Shown one piece after another: positions 6,987 to 27,812 of a DNA stretch of 64,000 bases. Location: the IMG/VR virus record IMGVR_UViG_3300027278_000003; one strand, 5' to 3'. The first letter of the stretch is position 1; every line of letters starts with the position of its first letter. Under the pieces are notes generated by a model. The model worked only from the letters and a program-made list of their open reading frames with translations. It ran no database searches and was not told the DNA's origin. Source of the DNA: a virus (lineage: Duplodnaviria; Caudoviricetes). Position numbers and translations under genes: made by a program.

Positions 6987-7651
6987 TGTTAAATTTCTGG
7001 AACTGGCCACGACGAAGCGATGAAAAAGCGATTGAAATCGAAAGTCCAGTTGAGGAAATAGAGAATGACACAACTCACTATCTTTTCATTCACGGCGCAA
7101 ATCAGTCTAGGCTTTCTTGGAACTGCATCATACACTTGTTGCAACCACAAAATTATACAACGCTAGAATACAACACCAACAATCGATTCTTTGACAATCT
7201 AGACATGCTTTCAGAACAGATTGCAAACATAGATGTAAAGATGTTTATAGTTGGACACTCACTTGGTGGTATTTACGGTCTACATCTTTACAATCTACAC
7301 AGAGACAAGTTTAAAGGTGCAGTTACGGCAAGTACCCCATATGGTGGAAGTCGAACCGCAGACTGGGCGAAATATATGGTCCCAGGTTACCCTTTATTCA
7401 AAGAAATTGGCGTTAGAGCAAAGCCAATTTCAGAACTAAAGAACATCAAAATTGAAATCCCTTGGACGCAAATCGTTACAACACGTGGTGCAACGCCGTG
7501 GCACGGCGGCGCAAACGATGGGGTTGTTACTTATGATAGTATGACCCTACGTGACGATATGCAGTATATAGAAGTTGCTGAAAATCACTATGAAATCCTA
7601 GCGTCAGACGATACAGTAGAAATAATAAAAAAACTTGCAACAAAAACTTGA
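6983..7651 (+). CDS. Alpha/beta hydrolase (esterase/lipase-like)
   Basis: LFIHG, GHSLGG nucleophile elbow, NDGVV, C-terminal NHY. Confidence 0.8.
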   Translation: MMLNFWNWPRRSDEKAIEIESPVEEIENDTTHYLFIHGANQSRLSWNCIIHLLQPQNYTTLEYNTNNRFFDNLDMLSEQIANIDVKMFIVGHSLGGIYGLHLYNLHRDKFKGAVTASTPYGGSRTADWAKYMVPGYPLFKEIGVRAKPISELKNIKIEIPWTQIVTTRGATPWHGGANDGVVTYDSMTLRDDMQYIEVAENHYEILASDDTVEIIKKLATKT

Positions 7652-7675
7652 CATCCCAACGAATCATGCTATATT
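7648..7675 (+). promoter_or_regulatory. sigma70-type early promoter with CGAATCA in the spacer
   Basis: TTGACA(7648)-N16-TATATT(7670), followed by a GAGGA RBS and small ORFs. Confidence 0.75.
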
Positions 7676-7707
7676 AATAGAGTAGTCGGAAAAGAGAGGA
7701 CTTCTCA

Positions 7708-7857
7708 ATGCGTGAAATGATTGAAAACTACATCAAAGCATGTGAACAAAACATCGCCAACTATATGTTGATTGAAGATGCCGATGAACGTCAACGTGCG
7801 CTTGATGCCGCATATGGCATGAAAGCAGATTTCGAAAAAATGCTGGAGACTCTCTAA
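7708..7857 (+). CDS. Small early hypothetical protein (49 aa)
   Basis: GAGAGGA RBS; MREMIENYIKACEQ...; TAATG junction to the next ORF. Confidence 0.65.
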   Translation: MREMIENYIKACEQNIANYMLIEDADERQRALDAAYGMKADFEKMLETL

Positions 7858-7997
7858 TGTACACTGTTGAATACGGTTTCTACAACTATCCCCGTAAAAC
7901 AAAAACATTTGACACCTACGCTGCTGCGAAAGGTTTCTTTTACGCAATGTCGCGTAAGAACGGCGTCAAGCGTGTAGAACTTAAGGAGGCTGTATAA
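7857..7997 (+). CDS. Small early hypothetical protein (46 aa)
   Basis: MYTVEYGFYNYPRKTK...; TAATG coupling at both ends. Confidence 0.6.
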   Translation: MYTVEYGFYNYPRKTKTFDTYAAAKGFFYAMSRKNGVKRVELKEAV

Positions 7998-8194
7998 TGT
8001 TCAATAAGTTTCTTGAAAATATGAGGTATGGTGTGTCTCTTGATGAAAACAAGTATCCTGACGACACAATTAACTGGGACTTTGTTGATGCCGATATGTA
8101 TGCGAAGTGGAGCGTTCTGATTGATGGCGAAACATACACTCAATGGTTTGAAAAAGTTGCAGACGAAATCGAAGGAGTTGAAGATACAGCATGA
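7997..8194 (+). CDS. Small early hypothetical protein
   Basis: ORF track; AAGGAGG RBS; translational coupling. Confidence 0.65.
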   Translation: MFNKFLENMRYGVSLDENKYPDDTINWDFVDADMYAKWSVLIDGETYTQWFEKVADEIEGVEDTA

Positions 8195-8337
8195 ACTTCA
8201 TAAGACAATTTTCTTTCTGCTTTGGTTAGAACGAGACGACCCGTCCGCGATGTATGCTACCTATACAGTGACGGAAGCAATCGATGCGCTGGCAGACATT
8301 ATGGGTGTAGACTCAACTAAACTACGGGAGTTGACAG

Positions 8338-8562
8338 ATGCGTGAGGCGATTGTTACTAAAGAATGGGGCGAAGTTGGCTTTGGCAGCAACAAGCGTGAT
8401 GGCTGGGCCTGGGAGGTTGCGTTCTTTGCAAGTGGTGACGAAGATGCAATTGATCGTCACTACTACAACACGGAACTTGCAGCACAGAATGCTGCCAATC
8501 TTTTTGAACGTGGCTTGTATTACACCGGTGAATACGGTGTCGTAGAATTTGAGGTTTGTTAA
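8338..8562 (+). CDS. Small hypothetical protein
   Basis: ORF track; GGGAG RBS. Confidence 0.6.
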   Translation: MREAIVTKEWGEVGFGSNKRDGWAWEVAFFASGDEDAIDRHYYNTELAAQNAANLFERGLYYTGEYGVVEFEVC

Positions 8563-8801
8563 TGCAAGATTTCATCAATACATATATCGCAGGAAATGGT
8601 TGGATCGGGGTCGCGTTGGGTCTCGCAATTTTTGCTATGGGATATTGGAGGGGACTTTCCAGAGTAAATAAGATTGCACCTCTTATCATTGATGCAACGA
8701 TTGCCGATCTTATCGAAAATGGTTTCGTTAAGACCAGGAAGCGTCTTGAGGACGGTGAATGGAAAGAGGAGTTGTTACGCCATGATGAAGAAGAAGTTTA
8801 A
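8562..8801 (+). CDS. Small membrane protein
   Basis: One hydrophobic segment (WIGVALGLAIFAMGYW); GAGG RBS. Confidence 0.6.
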   Translation: MQDFINTYIAGNGWIGVALGLAIFAMGYWRGLSRVNKIAPLIIDATIADLIENGFVKTRKRLEDGEWKEELLRHDEEEV

Positions 8802-8982
8802 TTTCACATCTTATGACGATATATCAGAGGACCTAGTTGGCTATGTTCTCACTATTTCGAATGAAGAAAAAATCACAAATCTAACTCTAGAAGAAATCAA
8901 CGATTTTTTGAACGAAGTTGATGAACACTTGTCCGACGATTGGGCGTGGCAAGATAGCGGCATAGAAATGGGATTTTATTGA
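8782..8982 (+). CDS. Small acidic hypothetical protein
   Basis: In-frame ATG at 8782 within the ORF-track entry; GAGGAG RBS upstream. Confidence 0.5.
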   Translation: MMKKKFNFTSYDDISEDLVGYVLTISNEEKITNLTLEEINDFLNEVDEHLSDDWAWQDSGIEMGFY

Positions 8983-9164
8983 TACCTAATACCAAAGAGT
9001 AGGATACACAGTGACTTGCAAAAATACAGTATTTTTGAGAGACATAATTTTTGAGCATCTTCCAGAATTGTTCCCCATGATGTCTTCCCGGCAACTCGCA
9101 TGGAGGACGGTGCAAAAATCGATACCGCGCCAAAAACTTTTTCTACTTTTTTTGCTGTAAGTTC

Positions 9165-9193
9165 TTGACAGATACCGCGAATCACTATATAAA
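9165..9193 (+). promoter_or_regulatory. sigma70-type early promoter with CGAATCA at spacer positions 8-14
   Basis: TTGACA(9165)-N17-TATAAA(9188); A/T tracts upstream. Confidence 0.8.
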
Positions 9194-9225
9194 GTATATG
9201 TAAGTTGATGAAAAGGGAATGAGAC

Positions 9226-9573
9226 ATGAACTACGAATTCGACACCGCGATCAATGAACTTTTGAACACGATCAAATCTGACTATTATCGTTACACTTCG
9301 CGCAACGGCACCCGCGAACTCACTGACATTAACAAGCGTATGATTGACGAATTCAATGCCGAACTTTCTGTTGAAGAAGGTCGCAAGTATGTAAAAGTGA
9401 TCAAAGGTGGTTCTGTTTGGGGTTTCATTGTCAAAGCAGACGACAAGAAATTCAAAGCAGGTGACATTCTGAAAGCTGCATCGTGGGCTTCTCCTGCAAA
9501 GAACAAAGCGCGTGGCAATATCCTTGAAGGCAACTTCTCTTGGGTTCAGTGGACTGGTCCTGCATATCTCTAA
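9226..9573 (+). CDS. Phage hypothetical protein (type seen in T4-like marine phages)
   Basis: GRKYVKVI...SVWGFIVK...GDILKAASWASPAKNKARGNI. Confidence 0.65.
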   Translation: MNYEFDTAINELLNTIKSDYYRYTSRNGTRELTDINKRMIDEFNAELSVEEGRKYVKVIKGGSVWGFIVKADDKKFKAGDILKAASWASPAKNKARGNILEGNFSWVQWTGPAYL

Positions 9574-9606
9574 TAAATAAAAACACTAAAGACTAAGGAG
9601 AATAAC

Positions 9607-9930
9607 ATGTCTGCAATTGAATATGAAAACAGCGGTGATGTAGATATTGTAGGTACTTCATTGATGGGGTATATCGGAACATCATACAATGAACTAGAAG
9701 TCGCTTTTGGAAATCCAACCTACTACTATGCTGAAGGTGCCACAACTGTGGAATGGGTTCTGCAATTAAAAGTACCAAATGGTGGCGACTTCGACTATGT
9801 AACCGCTACGATCTATGACCGCCACGAGGATTTCACACCACTGCAAGATAAAGACAAAGAAGGTGTTTGGTATATTGGCGGGTTTGAACGTGCATCAGTG
9901 GATGCAGTATATATGGCAATGGGACGTTGA
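9607..9930 (+). CDS. Phage hypothetical protein
   Basis: AAGGAG RBS; GTSLMGYI...FGNP...VEW. Confidence 0.65.
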   Translation: MSAIEYENSGDVDIVGTSLMGYIGTSYNELEVAFGNPTYYYAEGATTVEWVLQLKVPNGGDFDYVTATIYDRHEDFTPLQDKDKEGVWYIGGFERASVDAVYMAMGR

Positions 9931-10157
9931 AAATGCAAATTGAAGGTTTGACTTCGGAGCAAGTAGAACTACTTGATAAAATGTGGTCGATAGATACTCA
10001 TACCGAGTTGTCAGCATGGTTTAACACGTTAACTGAAAAAAAACACCAAGAGGCAATGGTTCTTCTAGAGTTGATTGAACTTGCGGCGATTGATGATCAA
10101 GTAGATGAAGACCAAGACCTAACCATCGCAAAACTGATGTTGAATAGCATTCTCTAA
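9927..10157 (+). CDS. Small acidic hypothetical protein
   Basis: ORF track, coupled to the previous gene. Confidence 0.55.
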   Translation: MKMQIEGLTSEQVELLDKMWSIDTHTELSAWFNTLTEKKHQEAMVLLELIELAAIDDQVDEDQDLTIAKLMLNSIL

Positions 10158-10174
10158 TTTTCATAAATACTAAT

Positions 10175-10870
10175 ATGAAAATTTATGAGATTGTTTCAGA
10201 AGCAAAACTAGAACCAGACTACGATTTCTTAGCTCAAGTTGAGGAAATCGTTGATGATGCTCTGGAAGAATATGCAGAATTCCTAGCAGATAATGACGAC
10301 AAAGACGACATTGATGAACTGGAAGAAATCCTAAATTCAAACAACTATGATGAATTACCAATTGAATTCATCGCTGACCATCACCCGCGCAAGGACCCAG
10401 ACGAATGGCTTAGTGCCGCGGCAGACTGGGATCCAAAAGAAGGTAAGAGCGTAAGAGTATTCTTACATGCTAAAAATCTTGAAGGTGTATATGGTCCACA
10501 AACATTCAAAAAAATTCTAATGCGTATGTTAGCCCATGAAACAATTCACTGGGGACAATACGATAAATTTGACCCGAAAGTATTGGACACTTACAAGAGT
10601 GGTTATATGAAGGGTGTAGAAAAAAAGAAGTCAGGCGGAACTGACCGTGACCTAATGCGTATGTATTTGCGTGATCCACACGAATTAATGGCATATGCAC
10701 ATGACCTCGCGGATGAAATGCGTGATACTGACAATCCTGAGGATGCACTACGCAACCCAGAGAAATATATTAAAGAACTGCCTGTATATCAGCGTTTCCG
10801 TCAGAGTTTTCCACGTGACGCGAAACAAATCAAGCAATTGATGAAATATACAGCAGGATACTTTAATTGA
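10175..10870 (+). CDS. Late protein with HExxH zincin-like motif
   Basis: LAHETIHWGQY and DPHELMAYA; N-terminus MKIYEIVSE; late promoter TAAATA at 10164. Confidence 0.55.
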   Translation: MKIYEIVSEAKLEPDYDFLAQVEEIVDDALEEYAEFLADNDDKDDIDELEEILNSNNYDELPIEFIADHHPRKDPDEWLSAAADWDPKEGKSVRVFLHAKNLEGVYGPQTFKKILMRMLAHETIHWGQYDKFDPKVLDTYKSGYMKGVEKKKSGGTDRDLMRMYLRDPHELMAYAHDLADEMRDTDNPEDALRNPEKYIKELPVYQRFRQSFPRDAKQIKQLMKYTAGYFN

Positions 10871-10934
10871 TTGCGCAAGTAGAAAACGATGCAATTTTGA
10901 ACAAGCGCCAGATCAAAAAACTCTACGAAATGCA

Positions 10935-11357
10935 ATGAATACTCTAACAGCAAAACAACAGAAAATCACCCGAACTCTGTTTCAACTTGCAAAAGACAAT
11001 GAGACTGCAACAAGAGCGAAACTTGTTGCAGCCGTTGTGTATAAAAATCAGATTATTAGTTTTGGTTTCAACAGCAAAAAATCACATCCATTTGTCATTC
11101 CATTTCAAAAGAATGAAGACGCAATCTATCTACATGCAGAGACAGACGCAATCAAAAACGCATTGCGTACCATTGGTGTAGATCAACTTGCGAAATGTGA
11201 CTTATATGTCGTGAGAGCAAAATACACAGACAAAAATAGATCAAATGCGCAACTTGGAATGGCAAAACCATGTAAAGGGTGCGCAAAATGCATCAGTCAG
11301 TTTGGGGTCAAGCGCGTTATCTATTCGACTGATGAACAAAGCTATGCATTTTTGTAA
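10935..11357 (+). CDS. Cytidine/deoxycytidylate deaminase-family zinc protein
   Basis: LHAETDAI ... AKPCKGC (HxE...PCxxC). Confidence 0.8.
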   Translation: MNTLTAKQQKITRTLFQLAKDNETATRAKLVAAVVYKNQIISFGFNSKKSHPFVIPFQKNEDAIYLHAETDAIKNALRTIGVDQLAKCDLYVVRAKYTDKNRSNAQLGMAKPCKGCAKCISQFGVKRVIYSTDEQSYAFL

Positions 11358-11400
11358 TATCTACAGTTAATTCTACTATATCTTGTGTCTAAATACATAT

Positions 11401-11497
11401 GTAGGCATGACGCCTACACTAAAGATGGTGCGCCCTGCACCATTCTCTAGTCCTCTTCGCCAACTGACCCGGTAGTCTAAGACTATCGGGTCTTTTT
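11401..11497 (+). ncRNA. Putative small structured late RNA ending in an intrinsic terminator
   Basis: TAAATA at 11390; hairpins GTAGGC/GCCTAC and ATGGTGC/GCACCAT; terminator GACCCGGTAGTC-TAA-GACTATCGGGTC-TTTTT; no ORF with an RBS. Confidence 0.45.
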
Positions 11498-11539
11498 GTT
11501 AATATACGACAATTCTATCACCAACATGCTAAATAAGTT

Positions 11540-11707
11540 TAATACAAATAGACGAAGCCCCTTCTGAGTTAGTAGTTGGCCCGCCGGGCAATACAACTCA
11601 GAGGTCTTCTAATAGATAATGGGGCATAGACCCCATACATTCTATAGGTATTATCGTTTTGGCGAACGAGGGAAATAAAAATTCAATGCAAGCGGATGTA
11701 ATCTGCA
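11540..11707 (+). ncRNA. Putative second structured RNA
   Basis: TAAATA at 11530; stems CTGAGTT/AACTCAG, GCCC/GGGC, ATGGGG/CCCCAT, AATGCA/TGCATT in non-coding DNA. Confidence 0.35.
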
Positions 11708-11736
11708 TTGACAATCTTCGCCATTTAGATTATATT
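11708..11736 (+). promoter_or_regulatory. sigma70-type promoter of putA
   Basis: TTGACA-N17-TATATT, then GAGG RBS before the ATG at 11756. Confidence 0.7.
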
Positions 11737-11755
11737 AATAGTAATTGAGGCGAAT

Positions 11756-14608
11756 ATGAAGTGTTATCCACATAATGAGTATTACAGAGTTGAGGAAGCG
11801 GAGATACTTCCTAAACTAATTTTGGCTACACGAATTGCCAAGACTGAAAGAGAACAAATTCTTGCAGCGGCAACTGAAATACAGTCAAAATTAAATGAAA
11901 CTCACTATGTTCACAAAGTTATGAAAGCGTACAATCTGTCTGGTACAGAGGGTATGGCACTTATGACATTGTGCGAAGCACTTCTACGCACACCAGATGT
12001 TGAAACCCGCGACAAACTTATCAAAGAAAAACTAAGCCGCGCACAGTGGAATCAGATTGCAGAAAATTCATTCTATGCAACAATCTCAGGTATCGCATTG
12101 ACAAAAGCACAGAGTTTTGCAGCATATGACACTGTTGTGAAGCGCATGGGTTGGCCAACAGTAAGAACGATGGTCGAAGAAGTAGTCAAAGTGATGGGCA
12201 CCATCTACGTGATGGGAGAAACGATCACAAAAGCCATAAAAAAGAAACAAGTAGACTATTCTTATTCGTTTGATATGCTAGGCGAAGCAGCATTGACTTG
12301 GGAAGACGCAAATGCATATTACGAAAAGTACATTGAAGCCTCTACACAATTCAAAGATTCAATATCTGTAAAACTCAGTGCAATCCATCCACGATATGAA
12401 TTGCGTAACTATCAAGACGTTGTTCAAACCCTTGTTCCCCGCCTTGCAGCAATTGCAAGAGTGTGTGAAGAACATGGCACAACTATGTTTATTGACGCAG
12501 AAGAAAGTTACAGACTTGATCTTAGTATTATGGTACTTGAAGAACTGCTAAAGACACACCGATTTAAAAAGAAAACTATCGGATTCGCAGTACAAGCATA
12601 TCAAAAACGTGCGTTTTGGGTAATCGACACGTTAGAAAGCATTGCAAGTGAAGCATCAACACAAATTGCTGTTAGACTTGTCAAAGGTGCATATTGGGAC
12701 ACTGAAATTAAACTTGCACAACAGCAAGGATTGCACTACCCAGTATTCACACGTAAAGAATTCACAGATATTTCATATCTTGCATGTGCAAGAAAACTAA
12801 TGCAATCTAAATTCATTAGTCCAGCATATGCGACACACAATACATTCACCGTGGCAGCCATTTATCACTACAACACAGATATAGGAGGTGATTTCGAATT
12901 TCAGAAATTATATGGCATGGGGAACGGTCTATTCGACCACATAAAAGAACATTACGATGCTAGTGTTCGTGTTTATGCTCCCGTAGGTGAATATAAAGAC
13001 CTGCTTGCGTATCTTGTGCGCAGACTTCTAGAAAATGGAGCAAACACAAGTTTCGTATTTAACCAGCAAGTAGTTGATCCTTTCGTTGAAGCAAAGCAGG
13101 TAAAGGACAACTTGCCATCTTATCTAGATTTATATGGTAAGAGAAAGAATTCGAACGGATATGATCTAACTGATGTAGACAAAATCATGTCGATACCACA
13201 TTCCGAGACAGTAGATTTCATAAATCGTGAAGGATACAATTTAGAAGAGTCTCTGGCGGTATTAACGTCTAAAACGAATAGTTGGAAAGCAAAGACATTT
13301 GCAGAACGAAAGTCGGCAGTACTTGCGTATGCTGATTATCTTGAAGAACATCTAATAACCGCAGCAAAGACAATCACAGATCACGCATATAAAACATTTC
13401 CAAACTCTATCGCAGAAGTACGTGAAGGTATCGACTTCATTCGATATTATGCAGAGGTTGCGGAACAGATGTATGATACTAAAGATACTGAATTGCGCGG
13501 TTACACTGGCGAGTACAACAAAACATCATACGAAGCACGTGGAACATGGATGGTGATTTCTCCGTGGAACTTCCCATTTGCTATTATGGTTGGGCCTGTC
13601 ATTGCGGCGTTGTTGGCGGGCAATACGGTCTTAGTTAAATCTGCGCCACAGACACAAGTTGTAGCAGACATAACAATTGGATGTATGTTAGTTGTGGGTA
13701 TACCGACGGATGCAATACAATTCTGTGATCCAAATCCAAGTGAAGCAGAAAAAGCATTGCGCGATGAACGCATCAATGGAGTTACGTTTACTGGTTCGCA
13801 TCCAACAGCAAAGCGTATACAATGTGTTCTTGCCGAGCGCGATGGGCCTATCATTCCGTTCATTGCAGAAACGGGTGGTATTAACTGTATGATTGCAGAC
13901 AGCACTTGTTTGCCAGAACAATTAGTCAAAGATGTACTAGTTGGAGCATTCGACAGCGCGGGACAGCGTTGTTCTGCTACTCGCTTCTTGTTTGTACAGC
14001 GTGACAACTCTGAAATCATTCTGAAAATGCTAAAAGGCGCAATGAAAAATCTTGTGCTTGGCTTCCCCGACGATTTAAACACTGATGTGTCACGCGTTAT
14101 TGATGGCGCAGCGTATCAGCGCATACAAGAACGTATCGCAGTATTAGAAGAACATGAAACTCTTATTTCTACTAAAGGTAGAAATGGTGCAGAACTACCA
14201 AAGCTAACAGTTGCGCCAAGCGCGTATCTTGTTTCTGATTACAAGAAGTATTTTGACAAAGAAATCTTTGGTCCGCTCTTACATGTGTATGTATATGACG
14301 CAGATGAATTAGATGAAATTATAGAATTTATGAATGCTACTAAGTTTGGACTAACGCTAGGTATACATTCTCGCATTTCATCGTTGTATGAACACATTTC
14401 GTCAAAACTAAACGTAGGAAACATATACGTCAATCGTGATCAAGTTGGTGCAGTTGTAGAAACGCATCCATTTGGTGGTGTTGGACTGTCTGGCACAGGA
14501 CCAAAAGCTGGTGGACCTGATTATCTACGTTCATATGTATGGGAAAAGCATATCTGCATCAATACAACTGCTATTGGCGGCAACACTGTTCTACTTTCTT
14601 CAAAATGA
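11756..14608 (+). CDS. putA: Bifunctional proline dehydrogenase / P5C dehydrogenase (PutA)
   Basis: SFDMLGE, ISVKLSA, IDAEE, VRLVKGAYWDTEIK, ATHN, FEFQKLYGMG, YLVRRLLENGANTSF; ALDH part ISPWNFP, FTGS, IAETGG, FDSAGQRCSA, EIFGP, PFGGVGLSGTGPKAGG, INTTAIGGN. Confidence 0.95.
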   Translation: MKCYPHNEYYRVEEAEILPKLILATRIAKTEREQILAAATEIQSKLNETHYVHKVMKAYNLSGTEGMALMTLCEALLRTPDVETRDKLIKEKLSRAQWNQIAENSFYATISGIALTKAQSFAAYDTVVKRMGWPTVRTMVEEVVKVMGTIYVMGETITKAIKKKQVDYSYSFDMLGEAALTWEDANAYYEKYIEASTQFKDSISVKLSAIHPRYELRNYQDVVQTLVPRLAAIARVCEEHGTTMFIDAEESYRLDLSIMVLEELLKTHRFKKKTIGFAVQAYQKRAFWVIDTLESIASEASTQIAVRLVKGAYWDTEIKLAQQQGLHYPVFTRKEFTDISYLACARKLMQSKFISPAYATHNTFTVAAIYHYNTDIGGDFEFQKLYGMGNGLFDHIKEHYDASVRVYAPVGEYKDLLAYLVRRLLENGANTSFVFNQQVVDPFVEAKQVKDNLPSYLDLYGKRKNSNGYDLTDVDKIMSIPHSETVDFINREGYNLEESLAVLTSKTNSWKAKTFAERKSAVLAYADYLEEHLITAAKTITDHAYKTFPNSIAEVREGIDFIRYYAEVAEQMYDTKDTELRGYTGEYNKTSYEARGTWMVISPWNFPFAIMVGPVIAALLAGNTVLVKSAPQTQVVADITIGCMLVVGIPTDAIQFCDPNPSEAEKALRDERINGVTFTGSHPTAKRIQCVLAERDGPIIPFIAETGGINCMIADSTCLPEQLVKDVLVGAFDSAGQRCSATRFLFVQRDNSEIILKMLKGAMKNLVLGFPDDLNTDVSRVIDGAAYQRIQERIAVLEEHETLISTKGRNGAELPKLTVAPSAYLVSDYKKYFDKEIFGPLLHVYVYDADELDEIIEFMNATKFGLTLGIHSRISSLYEHISSKLNVGNIYVNRDQVGAVVETHPFGGVGLSGTGPKAGGPDYLRSYVWEKHICINTTAIGGNTVLLSSK

Positions 14609-15213: not shown

Positions 15214-15276
15214 TACTTGTAAATTGTATTATAATAGTGTATTATGAAATATAACCTAAAACAATAAGAGGACATA

Positions 15277-15684: not shown

Positions 15685-15711
15685 TAACATTAAATAAAAT
15701 AGAAAATAGCA

Positions 15712-17076
15712 ATGGAAGAAAAAAGCAAAACGTGGTGCCTTGCACCTTGGACCGAACTGGCTATAAAAGAATACCGTGATGGGAAACTTACATCTGCATG
15801 GCCATGTTGTATGATGGGCAACTATGGAGAGCTTAATCCATTAGGCATTGATAATATTGAAAATCTGACACCAGATGAAATTTTTAATCATCCAGCCATG
15901 GAACAGTTACGACAGGACGGGTTGAATGGTGTCAGAAACCCAGCATGTAAAGTATGCTGGGATCAAGAAGATAAAGGGTTAGATTCTTTCAGGCATATGT
16001 CAAATCATGCTAGATACGGCGGGGACCATCACAACGGTAACAACATACCACATTATTCTGATAACCCAGAAGAAATGGGAATGTATGTATTAGATGTTAC
16101 CACTTCAAATAAATGCAACCTTGCGTGTAGAATGTGTACACCATCTGCAAGTGACCTTCTTGAGAAAGATACAAACTACTGGAAAGATAATGGCATTTAT
16201 GTGCAGACCTTAAATGCCATTAGAAGATGGTCCCCGTCGATGCCAGTCGGTATAGTAGGGACCTCTCAGTGGGATTGGTTGATGGAAAACACACACAAAA
16301 TAAAGGTGTTGAAGCTATCTGGTGGTGAACCATTGTACGATGAAAAAGTTGTCAGATTGCTACAAAGATACATAGACACTGGTAACGCATCAGATACCAC
16401 CCTTCATTTTCACACAAACGCAACTATTTTCAGTAAAAAGAATATAGAATTGTTGTCTAAATTTAGAATGAATGAACACGTGTTTAGTATCGATGGATGT
16501 GGGAAGACATACGAATACATCAGATATCCTATGACATTTCAGAAACTTGAACGATCTATAAAAAACTTTTTAAATTCTTCGGTGCGTAGAACATCCGTTC
16601 AACAATATAGTATGGTTGTATCCGCACTTAACGTATTGAATATCGTTGATTATACTAAATGGATAGCAAAAATTAGCTCAGAATCTAACAACTTAACCGT
16701 CAGTGAAATACATTTTGCAGAAATGTATCCATTGAACGAGCGTGGGACTTCTCTTTGTAATCTTCCAGTGCATATACTTGAACATGCATTAGAAAAAATA
16801 GAAAATTATGTTGAAGAAGCCAACAGTTTGACAGATATCTCAAATCGTTCTTACGTTATTATAATGAAAAACATTGAAAGGATGATGAATAATCCGATAA
16901 TTTCTATAAAAAATGCGATTGAACATAATACATGTACCGAGAATAATGCAAAACGAATGTTGACAGAAATAACAGCTTTTGACAAATCTCGCAACCAATC
17001 ATATCGCGACTTTTTAGATCCGATGTTAATAGAATGGTTGGATTCGATAGAAGGGTCTATAACACCTGTTCTATAA
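15712..17076 (+). CDS. Radical SAM protein with N-terminal SPASM/twitch-type Cys domain
   Basis: WCLAPW..PCC..C..CW; CNLACRMC; GGEP; TNAT; SIDG..YEYIRYP. Confidence 0.85.
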   Translation: MEEKSKTWCLAPWTELAIKEYRDGKLTSAWPCCMMGNYGELNPLGIDNIENLTPDEIFNHPAMEQLRQDGLNGVRNPACKVCWDQEDKGLDSFRHMSNHARYGGDHHNGNNIPHYSDNPEEMGMYVLDVTTSNKCNLACRMCTPSASDLLEKDTNYWKDNGIYVQTLNAIRRWSPSMPVGIVGTSQWDWLMENTHKIKVLKLSGGEPLYDEKVVRLLQRYIDTGNASDTTLHFHTNATIFSKKNIELLSKFRMNEHVFSIDGCGKTYEYIRYPMTFQKLERSIKNFLNSSVRRTSVQQYSMVVSALNVLNIVDYTKWIAKISSESNNLTVSEIHFAEMYPLNERGTSLCNLPVHILEHALEKIENYVEEANSLTDISNRSYVIIMKNIERMMNNPIISIKNAIEHNTCTENNAKRMLTEITAFDKSRNQSYRDFLDPMLIEWLDSIEGSITPVL

Positions 17077-19587: not shown

Positions 19588-19600
19588 AGTGGTAATAGAC

Positions 19601-19939: not shown

Positions 19940-19940
19940 T

Positions 19941-20872: not shown

Positions 20873-20881
20873 GAGGATATT

Positions 20882-21067: not shown

Positions 21068-21300
21068 GCGAATGGCTGCGGCGACTAATCGCCAAACATA
21101 CTGAAAAACAATTTCAAGAAAAACGAATTGACGTTATCAATGACATGTGCTATACAAGTAGACACGATTTTGGTCTTGTCAAGAATCCAGACCGACCATT
21201 GGAAAGTGGCATGACAGAAGCAGAACGTGAGTTTCTGTGGAATGAAATGGCACAAATATTTGATAATTGTATTGCACCAAAGATGGATTTCAAAAAGTGA
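21064..21300 (+). CDS. Small hypothetical protein
   Basis: ORF track, ATGA overlap. Confidence 0.55.
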   Translation: MSEWLRRLIAKHTEKQFQEKRIDVINDMCYTSRHDFGLVKNPDRPLESGMTEAEREFLWNEMAQIFDNCIAPKMDFKK

Positions 21301-21509
21301 AACTCCAAGTGACTGAATTTAAAATTCATGAAAATGGATATTTTGAAGAAATATTTGCAGTCAAGAAACATGCATATATTCCAAGAAAAATGTCAAGTGG
21401 TCATTGGGTCTGGAGAAAACCATACTATAGAATTTGTATCGTAAATGAACCAATGCATTTTTATGAAGGTGAATCATACACAAGCTATCAATGGATGGAT
21501 GAATCGTAA
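21297..21509 (+). CDS. Small hypothetical protein
   Basis: GTGA overlap with the previous stop. Confidence 0.45.
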   Translation: MKLQVTEFKIHENGYFEEIFAVKKHAYIPRKMSSGHWVWRKPYYRICIVNEPMHFYEGESYTSYQWMDES

Positions 21510-21704
21510 TTTGCCTATTTTACATTACTAAACGCTGATAACACAGGGAAACTATAAAGTGACAAGACAACTCGCAGATTTTATCACTGCTGAAATTGAT
21601 GATTTAGGTGATCTAGTGATTACTTTTGATGATAATGATGAATATTTTGAAATGAGTGTTCCTGCACGTGATGTGCTTGAAATGCTACGGGAGTTTTTTG
21701 ACGA

Positions 21705-22634
21705 ATGAAAGAGCTATGGGTAGAAAAGTATCGTCCGAAATCTGTAAAAGATTACGTGTTTCGTGACGAAAAACAAAAGAAGCAAGTACAGTCATGGGTT
21801 AGTAGTGGTGCTATTCCACATTTGCTATTTTCTGGTGCTGCTGGTACTGGCAAGACCACACTTGCAAAAGTTCTGCTAAATGAACTTGGCGTTGACGGTG
21901 GCGACATTATGATGATCAACGCATCAAACGAAAACAATGTTGACACAATGCGAACAAAGATCAATGGCTTCGCAAGTTCCCTACCATTCTCTGGCGATTT
22001 CAAATATGTGCTACTAGACGAAGCCGATTATCTATCTCCAAACGCACAAGCGATTCTACGTAACATGATGGAAACATATAGTTCAACTTGTCGTTTCATT
22101 CTCACGTGTAACTATCCAAACAAAGTGATCCCTGCTATCCACTCCCGCTGTCAGGGTTATCACATTGAAAAACTAGACAAAGAAGAATTTATGGCACGTG
22201 TTGCAACTATTCTTATCAGTGAAGGTGTTGATCTAGACATTGAAACTCTGGACATTTATGTTGCTGCAACATATCCCGATCTACGCAAATGCACAAACAT
22301 GGTACAGCAAAGTGTCGTTGATGGCGTGCTACAAGCACCAGGTGCAGGAGAGAGTGGCGAGAGTGATTGGATTCTCGAATACGTTGCAATGTTCCAAATT
22401 GGTAATATTGCAGGCGCACGTAAGCTAATTGTTGAAAAAGCGCGGCCAGAAGAATATGAAGGTGTTTATCGTAAACTATATGAAAACATCACAGATTGGT
22501 TTGGGCCAGACGAAAAGACTATCGGGCGTGCATTACTTTGCATTCGTGACGGTCTAGTCAATCATGCACTTGTTGCTGACCCAGAAATCAATTTGAGTGC
22601 AACACTCCTTGAACTTCAATATATTGCGAAATAA
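21705..22634 (+). CDS. Sliding-clamp loader AAA+ subunit (T4 gp44 / RFC small subunit family)
   Basis: WVEKYRP, LLFSGAAGTGKTT, INASNE, LDEADYL, RFILTCN, IHSRC. Confidence 0.92.
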   Translation: MKELWVEKYRPKSVKDYVFRDEKQKKQVQSWVSSGAIPHLLFSGAAGTGKTTLAKVLLNELGVDGGDIMMINASNENNVDTMRTKINGFASSLPFSGDFKYVLLDEADYLSPNAQAILRNMMETYSSTCRFILTCNYPNKVIPAIHSRCQGYHIEKLDKEEFMARVATILISEGVDLDIETLDIYVAATYPDLRKCTNMVQQSVVDGVLQAPGAGESGESDWILEYVAMFQIGNIAGARKLIVEKARPEEYEGVYRKLYENITDWFGPDEKTIGRALLCIRDGLVNHALVADPEINLSATLLELQYIAK

Positions 22635-23048
22635 ATGGACGAAGAATACGAACCACGAATTATCATGACTGACAACGAGTATGCACAATATAGATTGTTG
22701 CTACATCGTGAGCTTGCTACTATTGCAGAAAACCGTGATCCGCCGAGTCCATTTAGACCATTGCTTGAAGAAGGTTACAATCTAAAAATTGTAGTAAATC
22801 ACACAAATGATCTTCCTTGGGTGATTGAAAGATTTGAAGAAAAAATTATAAACGGCGATTATGAACACGTAATCATTGGCGACCCAAAAACACTAGGATA
22901 CAGCATGGATACGCTTGATCGACTACTTGAAGATCGGGATGTGTCTGCAACGTATTATAAAAATAAAGAATGGATTATTTTTTTGCTAAATATAACAAAG
23001 AACAATAAACTTGTTATTGAACAATCAAAAATAATTGTAGAAAGATAA
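22635..23048 (+). CDS. Hypothetical protein
   Basis: ORF track, directly abuts the clamp loader. Confidence 0.55.
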   Translation: MDEEYEPRIIMTDNEYAQYRLLLHRELATIAENRDPPSPFRPLLEEGYNLKIVVNHTNDLPWVIERFEEKIINGDYEHVIIGDPKTLGYSMDTLDRLLEDRDVSATYYKNKEWIIFLLNITKNNKLVIEQSKIIVER

Positions 23049-23050
23049 TA

Positions 23051-23374
23051 ATGGCAAAAAACGCATATATCGTATTGCAGCATATGTATGTCCCTGCAAA
23101 AGGTGAGAACACCAGTATGAAAAACTGGGGTGAACTCGGAAAAAACACAATGGTTGAGGAAATCTACTTCGTTACACGTATTCGTAAACGTTGGTGGCAA
23201 ACCGCAACTACTATCGTAAATCTAACAGAACGTAAAATTGAAAAGAACAGTGCGGAAACAACTGACTACAATCAGATTGTACAACACGTGATGATTAAGT
23301 ATCCAGCACAATATAACTCATTCATCGATGAATGCCGCGAATCAGGTTTGATCAACAAAGGTGCAAAAGAATGA
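23051..23374 (+). CDS. Hypothetical phage protein
   Basis: ORF track. Confidence 0.6.
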   Translation: MAKNAYIVLQHMYVPAKGENTSMKNWGELGKNTMVEEIYFVTRIRKRWWQTATTIVNLTERKIEKNSAETTDYNQIVQHVMIKYPAQYNSFIDECRESGLINKGAKE

Positions 23375-23814
23375 GCCGTATCTTAAAGAGAAAATTTCAA
23401 TCAATTCATAACATGCCATCATATAAAGTGATAGGCACCGTATCTCCTGAGATTATGAAAAAACTAACCGACCTCACTGTTAACAAAAACACAGAGGTAG
23501 CGCAAGAAATCGTTACTGCGATTACACAAGTGCTAAAAGCAAATATCACTGGTATGGCAGCAGATGCGTATGTTGAACCGTTCGAAACAGATTGGATCAA
23601 CCGTTTGAATTACGAAACTCCTACTGGTATTTTCTATTTGATTTCAGAGGGTGATGCTGATATCCAGTTCCCTAAAGAATCTGTAAAAATACAACCAGGA
23701 AAAGTTTATTTTGTGGATGAACGTCAAACATTTAAAATAAGTTCACCAAACAACACACGCGTGTGCTTAATGAGCGGACGTTTCACTTGGAACAAAGAGG
23801 TTCACGGAGACTAA
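23371..23814 (+). CDS. Hypothetical protein (possible cupin-like C-terminus)
   Basis: ATGA overlap; IFYLISEG...IQPGKVYFV. Confidence 0.5.
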   Translation: MSRILKRKFQSIHNMPSYKVIGTVSPEIMKKLTDLTVNKNTEVAQEIVTAITQVLKANITGMAADAYVEPFETDWINRLNYETPTGIFYLISEGDADIQFPKESVKIQPGKVYFVDERQTFKISSPNNTRVCLMSGRFTWNKEVHGD

Positions 23815-24617
23815 TGAAAAAGTTTATCGTTTCACTATTCGTTTCATTATTTGCAACGATTTTGTTTGCCGGTACTACCGGCGAACTACCAGTGGACGAT
23901 AAGCGCGGGTGGTGGTTTGAAACTATTGACTTGGATGCAAGAGATTACGCATATGATGTTGTCACCGATAATACTCGGAAAGGTGAGACCGGTCTGCGTT
24001 TTGAATTGCGCGATGGTGATTGCTATACCGCATATCCAGAAAATCCAAGCAGTGGTTGGGATGACTGCACCCGTGACCGTGAACGCAGTGAAATCCGTGA
24101 ACGTTGGAATCCAATTCTGGATAAGAGTGTTTGGTATGCATTTAGTATCTTCATTCCAGAAGATTACGAACCAATGTATCCAAAGCAAATCTTCTTCCAA
24201 TGGCACGGCGGTCCTGCACCAACAATCTACTATCATCTAAACGAAAATAAGTTTCATGTTGATATTCTAGCAGAGGTTGGACAGACCACTACACAATACA
24301 CATTTGGAGACAACATTCTCACACTCGGAGAATGGCATGACTTCGAAGTCAATATTGTTTGGAGTGCTAACGAACAAAATGGCAAGATGCTACTTTATGT
24401 AGACGGTGTGCGTCTTATCGAATATCGCGGTCCCACTATGCCACAAGAAGTTTATGATGCAGGCGAAGGTCCACAAGTAAAGTTTGGCATCTATCGTTCA
24501 CATCTGTCACGTTGGTCAGAAGATCGTCCGCACCCAACGCATGTTCTTTACTTTGATGAATATCGTCGTGGCTATAATCATACTGACGTTGATGTTGACA
24601 ATTACACAGGTGACTAA
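23814..24617 (+). CDS. Secreted polysaccharide-lyase-like beta-jelly-roll protein
   Basis: Signal peptide MKKFIVSLFVSLFATILFA; LRFELRDGD, RERSE, WYAFSIFIP, FQWH, GEWHDF, KFGIYRS, LYFDE. Confidence 0.7.
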   Translation: MKKFIVSLFVSLFATILFAGTTGELPVDDKRGWWFETIDLDARDYAYDVVTDNTRKGETGLRFELRDGDCYTAYPENPSSGWDDCTRDRERSEIRERWNPILDKSVWYAFSIFIPEDYEPMYPKQIFFQWHGGPAPTIYYHLNENKFHVDILAEVGQTTTQYTFGDNILTLGEWHDFEVNIVWSANEQNGKMLLYVDGVRLIEYRGPTMPQEVYDAGEGPQVKFGIYRSHLSRWSEDRPHPTHVLYFDEYRRGYNHTDVDVDNYTGD

Positions 24618-24919
24618 TGCCTGTAGATTTACACGGATATAAAATTCACAGTGCGTGGAGAGAGTATCGAAAAGCAACGCAAGATTGCTACTTTAAAGGT
24701 GTAAAAAAATTACAAGTAATAACTGGTCATGGAGTAATGCAACGAGAATTTCTCGGTTGGGTAGACGCTGACCCGTATGCAGTATCCGCCGCAAGACTTG
24801 ACCCGAATAAAGGTGCATGGACTGTTTACATCAAACGTAAAGAAAATCAGCCGAAACCAAAACCAATCGAACAGTTAAATCTCAAAGAACTTTATAAACA
24901 TTTTAATAAAAGTTCTTGA
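24617..24919 (+). CDS. Stand-alone Smr-domain protein
   Basis: VDLHG...LQVITGHG...NKGAWTVYIK. Confidence 0.75.
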   Translation: MPVDLHGYKIHSAWREYRKATQDCYFKGVKKLQVITGHGVMQREFLGWVDADPYAVSAARLDPNKGAWTVYIKRKENQPKPKPIEQLNLKELYKHFNKSS

Positions 24920-24944
24920 CATCCTCTGCGAATCATCATATAAC
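24916..24944 (+). promoter_or_regulatory. sigma70-type early promoter with CGAATCA at spacer positions 8-14
   Basis: TTGACA(24916)-N17-TATAAC(24939). Confidence 0.8.
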
Positions 24945-24976
24945 ATACATGTGATGAACAAATAGAGGACATTCTA

Positions 24977-26581
24977 ATGAATATCAAACTTTTTAAATCG
25001 CTTGTTGCTACTACGTTTCTAGTATCCGCAGGCTCAGCGGTAATTGCAGGACCGACAGAAGTTCGACAAGTGCAGGCAATGCTAAACTTTATCGGATATG
25101 AGTCCGGTCCTGCGGATGGAGTCGCTGGTCGTCGTACTAACGCAGCGGTAGAGAAATTCTACCGAGATCGTGGTCAAGTATTTGACGGTACAATCGATGG
25201 TAATGAGGTGGACTTCATTAAACTAGAAGCAGAAGCAAAGGGTTATGCAACTCAAGAACTTTGGTCATCCGATACGATTAACAACTCGCAATCAAACTTA
25301 CCTTTATTTGTGAGCAATTATTACAATAATTTCCCATCTGGTGGGAATATGCGATTCCGTGAAATGTACGGCGGCACAAACTCTTGGGCGGCCGCTCTGG
25401 CAGATTTCGACTACGATGGTGATGGAATTCGTGATAAAGTTATCGCTGTAGTTGCAGAAGCGGATAACCGTTCAAAGCAGGAATATGGCGAATCAGACCG
25501 GGAATACGGTCTACGTGGACGTTGTGATGGTGAGTGTGAATTCTCAACCTTCTCTGGTGTAATTTTCCTTAAAGGGCAGGGGAATGGAGAGTTTCGTTAT
25601 GTTCCGGGTGCAATCGTTGAAAATCCCGATAATATGATCGAATACGGGCATCAGATCGAAACTGCTGATTTCAATGGCGACGGCAAACTTGATATTATTG
25701 TCACAGACCACGGACTAGACCACTGGCGCGACGATTTTGTTGGACGTACTTTAAAATATTTCTTGTCTCAGCCAGATGGGACATGGCGTGAAAGTTCAGC
25801 AACGCATATGAACGGTGGTCGCCATTGGCGTAACTTCAACCATGGTATTACAGTCGGTGATATTGATAGCGATGGCGACATCGATATCGTAGAAACATCA
25901 ATTGCGCGGAACAACCAAGCATACCTTTGGTGCCGCATTAATGACGGTGCGGGGAATATGACACCTCGCGCATGTGGTGGGCGTGGAACCGGTTGGGGTT
26001 TGGCAGCAGAGGACTTCGATGGTGACGGCTGTATTGACGTTGCTCAAGTAGGCACTGGCGGGGAACGTTATCACTTCACTGGGATCAATTGGGGTAACTG
26101 TAGCGGGCGATTTAATGGTGCTACGACACGCATTAATGACCACGATGGACGCAAGGACGACCCAAACAATTGGGAAGGAACTGTAAATGTTTGGTCACAC
26201 GACCTAGACGGTGATGGCGACAAGGATCTTATCGTAAGTCGTATTGGCACTTATTATGTGGGCGGCGCATTCCAGATCGTTGAAAATCTTGGAAACCGCA
26301 AATTTGAAGATCGCGGTATTTTTGTCTACAATGCTCCTCCGGAAACCGCAGCTGGCGTACGGTCATGTCACGATAATTCGGAAGCCAATCCGTGCAACCT
26401 AACAGTAGATCGTCTGTACTTTATTGATGTAAATAACGACGGTATCGATGATCTTGTTACTACAAGCGGCGCAGCACATGTAAACGGCTTGGTTTGGATC
26501 AATAACGGTAACTACGAATTTAATCAGACTTCGGCGCGTGATCTTCGTATTGCTCCCGCGATGCATCGTCGCGACGACTGA
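24977..26581 (+). CDS. Secreted protein: signal peptide, peptidoglycan-binding-like domain and FG-GAP/VCBS repeats
   Basis: VRQVQAMLNFIGY..GPADGVAGRRTNAAV..F; repeated ADFDYDGDG, ADFNGDGKLD, GDIDSDGDID, EDFDGDGCID, DLDGDGDKD, DVNNDGIDD. Confidence 0.8.
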   Translation: MNIKLFKSLVATTFLVSAGSAVIAGPTEVRQVQAMLNFIGYESGPADGVAGRRTNAAVEKFYRDRGQVFDGTIDGNEVDFIKLEAEAKGYATQELWSSDTINNSQSNLPLFVSNYYNNFPSGGNMRFREMYGGTNSWAAALADFDYDGDGIRDKVIAVVAEADNRSKQEYGESDREYGLRGRCDGECEFSTFSGVIFLKGQGNGEFRYVPGAIVENPDNMIEYGHQIETADFNGDGKLDIIVTDHGLDHWRDDFVGRTLKYFLSQPDGTWRESSATHMNGGRHWRNFNHGITVGDIDSDGDIDIVETSIARNNQAYLWCRINDGAGNMTPRACGGRGTGWGLAAEDFDGDGCIDVAQVGTGGERYHFTGINWGNCSGRFNGATTRINDHDGRKDDPNNWEGTVNVWSHDLDGDGDKDLIVSRIGTYYVGGAFQIVENLGNRKFEDRGIFVYNAPPETAAGVRSCHDNSEANPCNLTVDRLYFIDVNNDGIDDLVTTSGAAHVNGLVWINNGNYEFNQTSARDLRIAPAMHRRDD

Positions 26582-26603
26582 GTGTAGAAAATATGAAAAA
26601 ATG

Positions 26604-26629
26604 AAAAGACCCTTCGGGGTCTTTTTTTT
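26604..26629 (+). terminator. Rho-independent terminator (cUUCGg loop)
   Basis: AAAAGACCC-TTCG-GGGTCTTTTTTTT. Confidence 0.9.
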
Positions 26630-26630
26630 G

Positions 26631-26659
26631 TTGACATACTACACGAAACACATTATACA
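26631..26659 (+). promoter_or_regulatory. sigma70-type early promoter, variant spacer motif CGAAAC
   Basis: TTGACA(26631)-N17-TATACA(26654). Confidence 0.7.
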
Positions 26660-26677
26660 TATGCTGTAACAAGGACA

Positions 26678-26908
26678 ATGATGATGCGAAATCTAACACA
26701 ACTTGAAGAAGACCTTTTTGATCTTGCAGAAAAACTTGGTGTTGGCACGAAAAGCAGTGATGTATGTCTACGAGCCATTCGCAAGATACAAGAACTTGAA
26801 GGCGAAGTAACTGATCTTACTGCTAAGAATACTCGTATGAGTTGGGAAGTAAATCCTGATCGTATGGGCGGAATGTTTACTCGCGAAGAACTGAATAGGG
26901 ATGAATGA
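26678..26908 (+). CDS. Small early hypothetical protein
   Basis: AAGGA RBS; ORF track. Confidence 0.6.
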   Translation: MMMRNLTQLEEDLFDLAEKLGVGTKSSDVCLRAIRKIQELEGEVTDLTAKNTRMSWEVNPDRMGGMFTREELNRDE

Positions 26909-27147
26909 TAATGACTTTTTGGGCTACACTATGGTATGCGGGTGCGGTTGTATTAACACTTGGGGATGAAGGACAAACCGAAGACGAGTGCAATATGATC
27001 GGACATCAAATAATGTATGACATTACAACTCCGTATTCAGACCCAGAAATGGAAGAAGTTTTGGCGGAAAGTCCATTCCCTACTCACCAGTTTTCATTCT
27101 CTTGTGAAAAAGAAATGCTTCCGATTGACGAAAAATATCGCAAATAA
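26905..27147 (+). CDS. Small early hypothetical protein
   Basis: ATGA overlap. Confidence 0.55.
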   Translation: MIMTFWATLWYAGAVVLTLGDEGQTEDECNMIGHQIMYDITTPYSDPEMEEVLAESPFPTHQFSFSCEKEMLPIDEKYRK

Positions 27148-27150
27148 TTC

Positions 27151-27179
27151 TTGACAGTTTGTACGAATCGCGCTATACA
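27151..27179 (+). promoter_or_regulatory. sigma70-type early promoter with CGAATCG at spacer positions 8-14
   Basis: TTGACA(27151)-N17-TATACA(27174). Confidence 0.8.
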
Positions 27180-27207
27180 TAGTATGTAAGAAAAAAGAAA
27201 GAGACAA

Positions 27208-27780
27208 ATGACTGAAAAACTTATTTTGACCGACTGCGATGGTGTTCTTCTTGATTGGGAAGTAGCGTTTGAGCAATGGATGGAACAGCATGGGCACAAG
27301 AAAGTTGTCCAAGCAACGTATGATATTTCTACCACGTACGGTATCGACAAAGCCGAAGGCAAGCGTCTTGTTCGTGAATTCAACGAAAGTGCGTGGATGG
27401 GATTTCTTCCTGCGTTTCGTGATGCCCGGAGCGGTGTTGCAAAACTTGTTGAACAAGGCTACAAGTTTGTTGTTATCACTTCGCTTTCACTTGACGAAAA
27501 AGCCCGGATGCTACGGATCAGCAACTTGAAAAACATCTTTGGTAAGGATGTGTTCGTTGATGTTATCTGTCTTGACACTGGTGCAGACAAGGACGAAGAA
27601 CTTGTAAAGTACGCGGGTACTGGTCTGCGGTGGATCGAAGATAAGCCAGAAAACGCTGAATGCGGGTTGAAATACGGATTGAAGCCGATCTTGATTGAAC
27701 ACAATCACAACCGTGATCACGATGTTGAAGGCATTGAATACGCAGAAGATTGGGACGATATCGTTTCCAACTTGATTTAA
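27208..27780 (+). CDS. HAD-superfamily 5'(3')-nucleotidase-like protein
   Basis: LTDCDGVLLDW (DxDG), VITS, WIEDKPENA. Confidence 0.75.
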   Translation: MTEKLILTDCDGVLLDWEVAFEQWMEQHGHKKVVQATYDISTTYGIDKAEGKRLVREFNESAWMGFLPAFRDARSGVAKLVEQGYKFVVITSLSLDEKARMLRISNLKNIFGKDVFVDVICLDTGADKDEELVKYAGTGLRWIEDKPENAECGLKYGLKPILIEHNHNRDHDVEGIEYAEDWDDIVSNLI

Positions 27781-27783
27781 CAG

Positions 27784-27812
27784 TTGACACACTCTGCGAA
27801 TCGCTCTATAAA
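27784..27812 (+). promoter_or_regulatory. sigma70-type early promoter with CGAATCG at spacer positions 8-14
   Basis: TTGACA(27784)-N17-TATAAA(27807). Confidence 0.8.

Follow-up and report, generated by a model that had tools for sequence, protein, structure and literature searches.

Why does a phage place the same seven-base word at one fixed point in promoter after promoter? The question is raised by a 64,000-nt stretch of DNA (hereafter, the window) from the Caudoviricetes record IMGVR_UViG_3300027278_000003 in IMG/VR, where promoters of presumed early genes carry the box CGAATC(A/G), or CGAATCR, between their -35 and -10 hexamers. GcrA is a sigma70 cofactor of Alphaproteobacteria that reads N6-methyladenine (m6A), and an initial annotation of the window proposed that the phage recruits host or phage GcrA through this box. 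Together with the methyltransferase CcrM, GcrA makes up what is, to our knowledge, the best-understood epigenetic switch of bacterial transcription, and the switch is known only from host cell-cycle genes. The record holding the window comprises 342,181 bp (39% GC; 92% complete by CheckV estimate), with nearly all genes on one strand, and is referred to below as the jumbo phage.

Direct reading of the sequence located all eight promoter sites named in the initial annotation at their claimed positions (Table 1). The pattern TTGACA-N7-CGAATCR-N3-TATA was matched exactly at 9165, 24916, 27151 and 27784, and never in 100 shuffles of the window. The bare 7-mer CGAATCR showed no enrichment in the window (13 occurrences vs 15 expected), and the signal is therefore one of position and strand. 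Across the whole genome, the full pattern had 14 exact matches, all on the coding strand, and none in the control, while CGAATCR-N3-TAnA had 25 coding-strand occurrences and a single one on the opposite strand. The positional enrichment among sigma70 promoters that the GcrA proposal calls for was found genome-wide: when coding-strand TTGAC[AG]-N16-18-TAnAnn sites were picked by their -35 and -10 elements without regard to the spacer (n = 55), the box stood at an identical offset from the -10 in 23, where about 0.006 would be expected by chance. The looser pattern TTGAC-N7/8-YGANTCR gave 23 coding-strand matches in the phage vs 3 in the control.

The promoters form two spacer subclasses, a 17-bp class (class A) reading TTGACA-N7-box-N3-TATA(A/C)(A/C) and a 16-bp class (class B) reading TTGACA-N6-CGAATCA-TGC-TATATT with an extended -10. 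In both, a constant N3 separates the box from the -10, and it is the distance to the -35 that varies (N6 or N7). A TGC precedes the -10 (TATATT) only in the 16-bp class, the N3 of the 17-bp class being variable, and a TGn extended -10 does not explain the box at -22 to -16. The class A promoters are omitted by a generic sigma70 scanner because their -10 lacks the T at -7. All 25 of 25 promoters have TTGACA as the -35, and 21 of the 25 have CGAATCA as the box. A conserved GTA 7 nt past the -10 is the likely transcription start, and with the start placed at its G, GAATC lies at -21 to -17 in 23-25 promoters. One promoter has the box immediately following TTGACA. Four more, before tRNA/RNA loci, read TTGA-CGAATCR with GAATC at about -30 to -26 and share no other similarity; two of these lie in the window, at 56802 (TTGACGAATCA, GAATC likewise at about -30 to -26) and 57032 (TTGACGAATCG).

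About 28 presumed early units start from box promoters. The genes behind them are mostly small open reading frames (ORFs) of unassigned function with strong ribosome-binding sites; this is typical of early genes, and we infer an early timing. Among the units in the window, the ORF behind the 24916 promoter encodes a 534-aa product with FG-GAP repeats and a peptidoglycan-binding domain, and a terminator hairpin (26603-26626) directly precedes the variant promoter at 26631.

Table 1. Promoters carrying the box or its variant in the window, and the nearby methyltransferase gene P0001
Feature	Coordinates	Strand	Elements	Gene driven
Promoter, 16-bp-spacer class	7648..7675	+	-35 TTGACA 7648-7653; N6; box CGAATCA 7660-7666; extended -10 TGC-TATATT 7667-7675	49-aa ORF starting 7708
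Promoter, 17-bp-spacer class	9165..9193	+	TTGACA 9165-9170; box CGAATCA 9178-9184; -10 TATAAA 9188-9193	ORF 9226-9573
Promoter	24916..24944	+	TTGACA; box CGAATCA 24929-24935; -10 TATAAC	ORF 24977-26581
Natural variant promoter	26631..26659	+	TTGACA-N7-CGAAACA (26644-26650, no GANTC)-N3-TATACA	ORF 26678-26908
Promoter	27151..27179	+	TTGACA; box CGAATCG 27164-27170; -10 TATACA	ORF 27208-27780
Promoter	27784..27812	+	TTGACA; box CGAATCG 27797-27803; -10 TATAAA	ORF 27839-28111
-30-class promoter before tRNA locus	56802..56830	+	TTGA-CGAATCA; box 56806-56812, overlaps -35; candidate -10 TAAATT, 17-bp spacer	
Second -30-class promoter, tRNA locus	57032..57060	+	TTGA-CGAATCG; box 57036-57042	
P0001	L025:6664-7236 (window-frame 73320-73892, just beyond window end)	-	protein ends FDNFFDL	

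The box agrees with the published GcrA site in word, orientation and position. GcrA prefers TGATTCG, or more broadly YGAKTCK, and its regulon sites lie narrowly near -20, with others at +2 to +30 (Haakonsen 2015, PMC4647560). Its DNA-binding domain was crystallised on TGATTCG and contacts all seven bases (Wu 2018, PMC5887438). The centres of upstream sites fall at -20±1 and -30±2, and the non-template strand of the PcsM scaffold reads TTGACA-CCCGGG-CGAATCC-CTGC-TATAAT, with GAATC at -22 to -18 (Wu 2023, PMC9976885). CGAATCA is the exact reverse complement of TGATTCG, which is both the MEME consensus and the crystallised site, and CGAATCG reverse-complements to CGATTCG, within YGAKTCK; the likeness of the box to the GcrA consensus was borne out. 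The -20 class has 23 promoters with one or the other word, and the -30 class has 4. With the start placed from sequence rather than mapped, GAATC at -21 to -17 and at -30 to -26 fits both published registers, and the CG of the box occupies the promoter-distal side on the non-template strand, just as it does in PcsM.

The phage promoters share with the GcrA promoters of Caulobacter crescentus, such as PcsM, the same 7-bp site and orientation, a spacer location near -20, a second register near -30 and a single asymmetric site of the monomer type. The phage box lies 1 bp nearer the -10 than that of PcsM. Unlike the Caulobacter GcrA promoters, which belong to the host cell cycle, these are phage promoters with near-consensus AT-rich hexamers and about 28 copies of the top-ranked word. 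The Caulobacter promoters are GcrA-activated and CcrM-methylated; for the phage promoters, GcrA binding and methylation are proposed. No description of GcrA sites in phage promoters was found in the literature.

Sequence turnover around the box points to selection on it. GANTC is depleted in the genome (657 vs about 1036 expected, ratio 0.63), and its intergenic excess (60 vs 37 expected) is due to the promoter boxes. Outside promoters, the 7-mer is also depleted, with ~40 expected per strand but only 14 seen on the non-coding strand and 22 within ORFs. Orthologous promoters in uncultured relatives, whose proteins are 38-66% identical, keep TTGACA-N7-CGAATCA-N3-TATA while the spacer flanks and leaders diverge. 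The box is retained in the orthologues of the 9165 promoter (38-49% protein identity), and those of the 27151 promoter (about 65%) carry CGAATCA in place of CGAATCG.

Such conservation bears on the idea that the box is functionless and has hitch-hiked in a promoter cassette spread by duplication or recombination, like the T4-type promoter-early stem-loop cassettes. The ~nine class-B promoters would suit this idea, since the stretch of roughly 45 bp that runs from the box to the ribosome-binding site is near-identical among them; the 7648 promoter is one of these cassettes (…CGAATCATGCTATATTAATAGAGTAGTC…AGAGAGG). However, the class A promoters have only the -35, box, -10 and start in common, the orthologous promoters hold the box as their flanks change, the box recurs in unrelated phage lineages (see below), and the 7-mer is scarce outside promoters. 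We consider hitch-hiking very improbable.

One further class-B cassette, at genome coordinate G 305098 (window-frame 91472, outside the window), has CATCCTC in place of the spacer box. A CGAATCA stands about 20 nt past its start, immediately ahead of the ATG, and may represent the downstream (+5 to +30) GcrA register.

The affiliation of the phage was sought through its DNA polymerase and large terminase. The polymerase is closest to those of Sinorhizobium phage Phosso (49% identity) and Agrobacterium phage Atu_ph07 (46%), followed by a Vibrio jumbo phage (44%) and Rak2-like phages (42%). The terminase has its top match in Pseudomonas phage PA5oct (55%), ahead of Atu_ph07 (52%) and Phosso (50.5%). 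By these affinities the phage is a member of the PA5oct/Atu_ph07/Rak2 jumbo-phage supergroup, and its host cannot be fixed from phylogeny alone, since the polymerase is nearest to rhizobial jumbo phages and the terminase to PA5oct. No cultured phage was matched by megablast with 5 kb of the window, the topoisomerase of L130 gave no host signal, and an exact-protein look-up of a relative's ClpA-like protein (L072) returned metagenome contigs only and no host lead. In a 102-kb box-bearing relative, the RNA ligase matches predominantly phages of Alphaproteobacteria. The metagenomes containing the phage are marine, estuarine and algae-associated; they are short-read only, with no RNA dataset among the runs listed.

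Some cultured phages with alphaproteobacterial hosts have the same promoter design. In phage DSS3P8, which infects Ruegeria pomeroyi DSS-3, TTGAC-N7/8-YGANTCR had 3 matches vs 0 in the control, and CGAATCRTG occurred at 12 sites on one strand vs 0 in the control, all inside an 8-kb region of small genes and typically 50-60 nt upstream of start codons. The DSS3P8 sites occur in two registers, distinguished by the distance from the box to a conserved downstream leader, CGAAACGC: 16-18 nt in the first register, TTGACN-N7-CGAATCR-TGG-CAAAAC, and 26 nt in the second, CTTG-CGAATCA…GACAAA. The 9-bp offset between registers is the same in DSS3P8 and the jumbo phage, and the -10 elements of DSS3P8 are weak. 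The cassette is common to Ruegeria phages V10 and RpAliso, DSS3_MAL1 and Phaeobacter phage MD18; the hosts of RpAliso and MD18 are Ruegeria pomeroyi DSS-3 and Phaeobacter inhibens, respectively. The -20 box of MD18 is CGAATCT, and the -30 register predominates in RpAliso. In addition, nine promoters of MD18 and RpAliso carry a second site, NGA[N]TCA, abutting the leader near the start. The bracketed N takes all four bases (A, C, G and T), which indicates that GANTC itself, and no single word, is selected there. Neither the DSS3P8 nor the MD18 paper (PMC4961962, PMC7643831) mentions promoters or GcrA.

These roseophages (DSS3P8, vB_RpoS-V10, RpAliso, DSS3_MAL1, MD18) resemble the jumbo phage in having CGAATC(A/G/T) N7 after TTGACN or directly after TTG, on one strand, 50-60 nt ahead of small early genes, in 10-20 copies per genome. 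They differ in that they are unrelated siphoviruses whose GC content is 56%, whose -10 elements (CAAAAC, GACAAA) are weak and whose cassettes have an upstream palindrome, GCTTGAAGC. Further differences are the second GANTC near the start, in some copies, and a protein of MD18 with a GcrA DNA-binding domain. This protein (L152, 108218-108436; E 9.5e-19 for the domain) has a C-terminal part other than the sigma-interacting domain, and a short ORF of DSS3P8 (70000-70209) corresponds to that C-terminal part only, 81% identical and without the DNA-binding domain. As side observations, the roseophage cassettes open with a near-palindrome, GC(T)TGAAGC / GCTTCAAGC, ~20-30 bp upstream of the -35, and have the leader CCGAAACGCAG before the ribosome-binding site (DSS3P8 142-146 kb and 1-5 kb; L298, L299).

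Recurrence extends to uncultured phages. A pattern scan of IMG/VR recovered at least 112 stretches, at least 27 of them with two or more box promoters, and most among the matches listed were relatives of the phage. An unrelated 49-kb contig (G001) has five promoters reading TTGACAATGTTTC-CGAATCA-N3-TAnAAT. It has no protein in common with the jumbo phage at E 1e-5, and in its large terminase it shows 62% identity to Rhizobium phage P106B and 59% to Rhizobium phage RHph_X2_24. The jumbo phage and DSS3P8 share only 7 proteins, mostly RNA-repair enzymes. The presence of the box in phages without common proteins argues for a host factor over a phage-encoded one. Two other features of the contig were seen in the region of its box promoters (L153, 4150-7900): all five also have GGAGATTCG(A/C)AAATG where the ribosome-binding site and start codon lie, giving a second GANTC in opposite orientation, and one drives a DUF4942-type methyltransferase (5267-6631).

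These comparisons also weigh on the alternative that the box is the operator of a monomeric, phage-encoded regulator, such as an early shut-off repressor or a MotA-like activator. Control of repeated early promoters by a phage's own protein is common, MD18 encodes a GcrA-type DNA-binding domain with a different C-terminus, and one early gene behind a box promoter (G 114772, 143 aa) is common to the jumbo phage and DSS3P8, where it is gp226 of the early region. But the lack of a common protein with the 49-kb contig, the handful shared with DSS3P8 and the absence of a GcrA-like domain from this genome all speak against a phage regulator, and consensus-hexamer promoters of small first-in-operon genes must act before phage proteins exist. 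We therefore hold such a regulator to be improbable, and a host factor to be more likely than a phage factor on the sequence comparisons.

A phage precedent is the middle promoter of T4, in which a MotA box replaces the -35, and phage-encoded MotA and appropriation of sigma by AsiA are required. The likeness lies in a short asymmetric box whose spacing from the -10 is fixed and in a promoter class that would be read through a sigma70 cofactor, as proposed here. The jumbo phage differs in keeping a consensus -35, and no phage factor was found in it. A MotA-type middle promoter was rejected on two counts: the -35 is TTGACA in 25/25 promoters, and no protein is common to the box-bearing lineages.

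Bacterial genomes were surveyed for the same architecture. Among the matches listed from a scan of 185,579 bacterial genomes, the promoter pattern gave single, chance-like occurrences across many phyla. TTGAC-N8-CGAATCR was found ~100 times vs ~39 in the control in 301 Alphaproteobacteria, and 196 times vs ~102 in 301 Gammaproteobacteria, by hand tally against a dinucleotide-biased control and with most matches inside genes. GcrA (PF07750) was present in 196 of 301 sampled alphaproteobacterial genomes, genomes of 0.9-1.4 Mb included. The 301-genome samples used for the pattern tallies and the PF07750 count include the unpublished genomes G044 and G346, neither of which by itself carries any claim made here.

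The GcrA proposal of the initial annotation survives in one of its two forms. The word, the orientation and the two registers fit recruitment of GcrA; a GcrA encoded by this phage is excluded, as the genome gave no PF07750 match at E ≤ 1 and no match to the GcrA-like protein of MD18. A search for a ccrM homologue, suggested by the same annotation, was likewise negative, with no PF01555 methyltransferase in the genome. By comparison, phiCbK-like Caulobacter phages encode GcrA homologues, proposed to act on host genes and the only GcrA link described in the phiCbK paper (Gill 2012, PMC3556154). Both cases concern phages of Alphaproteobacteria, the jumbo phage as proposed here, that engage the GcrA/CcrM cell-cycle module, but the phiCbK-like phages supply the regulator, whereas the jumbo phage supplies binding sites and has no gcrA.

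The lineage does encode methyltransferases. Directly after its DNA polymerase gene, the jumbo phage encodes P0001, a 190-aa NPPY methyltransferase (phrog_799 'DNA methyltransferase', E 3e-31). In one relative (G002) this slot is occupied by a 483-aa PF01555 enzyme, a non-orthologous replacement. A second relative (G003) has a 288-aa PF01555 gene as part of an insertion that separates two genes lying side by side in the jumbo phage. The best solved relative of both PF01555 enzymes is Caulobacter CcrM, 6PBD (E 3e-21 for G003 and 6e-21 for G002). These CcrM-like enzymes make self-methylation of GANTC plausible in the lineage and do not settle the specificity of P0001.

Several observations weigh against GcrA as the reader of the box. 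The genome, estimated to be 92% complete, has neither gcrA nor a CcrM-type methyltransferase in the PF07750 and PF01555 searches, and phrog_799 is the sole match of P0001, which has no Pfam, NCBIfam or PDB relative. Within the promoter family, CGAAACA, which lacks GANTC, and CGAATCT, which falls outside YGAKTCK, each occur once. The central base is invariant in the phage (always GAATC), which fits a specific word as well as a methylation site. An activator may be unneeded, since the -35 is consensus and the -10 is good. On the host side, the terminase is nearest to a Pseudomonas phage, and the margin between the polymerase identities (49%, 46%, 44%) is small. Furthermore, the architecture is at chance level or absent in Atu_ph07, Phosso, Cr30, CcrBL9, P106B and its group of rhizobiophages, RHph_X2_24, HMSP1-Susan and RHph_TM26, all cultured phages of Alphaproteobacteria. 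Its absence from several cultured alphaproteobacterial phages implies that the design marks some lineages and is no general property. In the control phages PA5oct, Vibrio phage 2.275.O and GAP32, TTGAC-N7/8-YGANTCR was at chance level.

Some of these points would equally suit a box that is bound by another factor, or contacted by host RNA polymerase itself, as a lineage-specific spacer element read by sigma or the beta' zipper, in which case the identity with the GcrA site would be coincidental and methylation irrelevant. An invariant GAATC with conserved flanking C and R behaves as a sequence-specific word, the hexamers are already near-consensus, the polymerase and terminase disagree about the host, and a compensating spacer contact is conceivable in class A, where the -10 lacks the T at -7. 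Yet a 7/7 match in the same orientation and in both GcrA registers is hard to obtain by chance, the same box occurs in phages of known alphaproteobacterial hosts, the second site of MD18 and RpAliso varies solely at the N of GANTC, and relatives encode CcrM-like methyltransferases. We regard another factor or direct polymerase contact as unlikely. The four-fold match (word, orientation and two registers), the conservation under divergence, the recurrence in unrelated phages, cultured phages of Alphaproteobacteria among them, and the CcrM-like enzymes of relatives lead us to favour the GcrA reading: the box is likely, though by no means certainly, a GcrA-type site, and these phages probably borrow an epigenetic cofactor of the host.

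In the mechanism that we propose, the host would be an alphaproteobacterium, and its sigma70-type RNA polymerase would transcribe the presumed early genes and the tRNA/RNA-repair loci from promoters each with a GcrA docking site. The GANTC core of the box would be N6-adenine methylated by host CcrM, by P0001 or by the CcrM-like enzymes of relatives. GcrA would ride on sigma70 domain 2 and set its N-terminal helix-turn-helix in the major groove of the box, on the face opposite RNA polymerase. It would stabilise binding and open-complex formation, so that the phage early promoters would beat host promoters. Promoter firing would then hinge on the presence of GcrA, hence on host S phase, as well as on whether the DNA is methylated.

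Extending the proposal beyond the jumbo phage is more tentative. It is quite possible that diverse marine alphaproteobacterial phages (jumbo, T4-like, siphoviruses) build the optimal GcrA site into their early promoters, a widespread and as yet undescribed strategy in which the first wave of transcription would be driven by the host m6A reader and gated by cell cycle and methylation, and replisome-tied phage CcrM-like methyltransferases would pre-methylate progeny DNA so that it arrives switched on. If true, phage takeover would rely on a methylation reader of the host, infection success could vary with host cell-cycle phase, and phage orphan methyltransferases would gain a regulatory role besides restriction protection. 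For uncultured marine phages, the motif would also serve as a sequence-only marker of an alphaproteobacterial host. The same promoter design in cultured phage-host pairs (DSS3P8, RpAliso, MD18) makes the idea directly testable.

Other features of the genome lie apart from the box. The window encodes a 741-aa ClpA-type two-domain AAA+ unfoldase (Clp_N, AAA, AAA_2, ClpB_D2-small; 36627-38852, + strand). A ClpP-like peptidase lies outside the window at genome coordinate G 43326, and in relatives a DnaJ-domain gene stands immediately upstream of the ClpA-like gene. A search of the genome for TGT/DpdA (PF01702) gave no match. Across the whole genome (G000), the palindromes AAGCTT, AGATCT, AGCGCT, GACGTC, GAGCTC and GTCGAC are absent and other 6-bp palindromes are 5- to 25-fold depleted, which indicates strong restriction-site avoidance. 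The 64-kb window also holds four separate radical-SAM proteins (118-1707, 15712-17076, 60130-61362 and 61388-62935), one with a SPASM domain and one with a B12-binding domain. Finally, an auxiliary metabolic gene of a kind unusual in phages (11756-14608, + strand) lies behind a TTGACA-N17-TATATT promoter at 11708 that lacks the box. It encodes a PutA-like protein of 950 aa, which combines proline dehydrogenase with aldehyde dehydrogenase and is 37% identical to Acinetobacter-type PutA.

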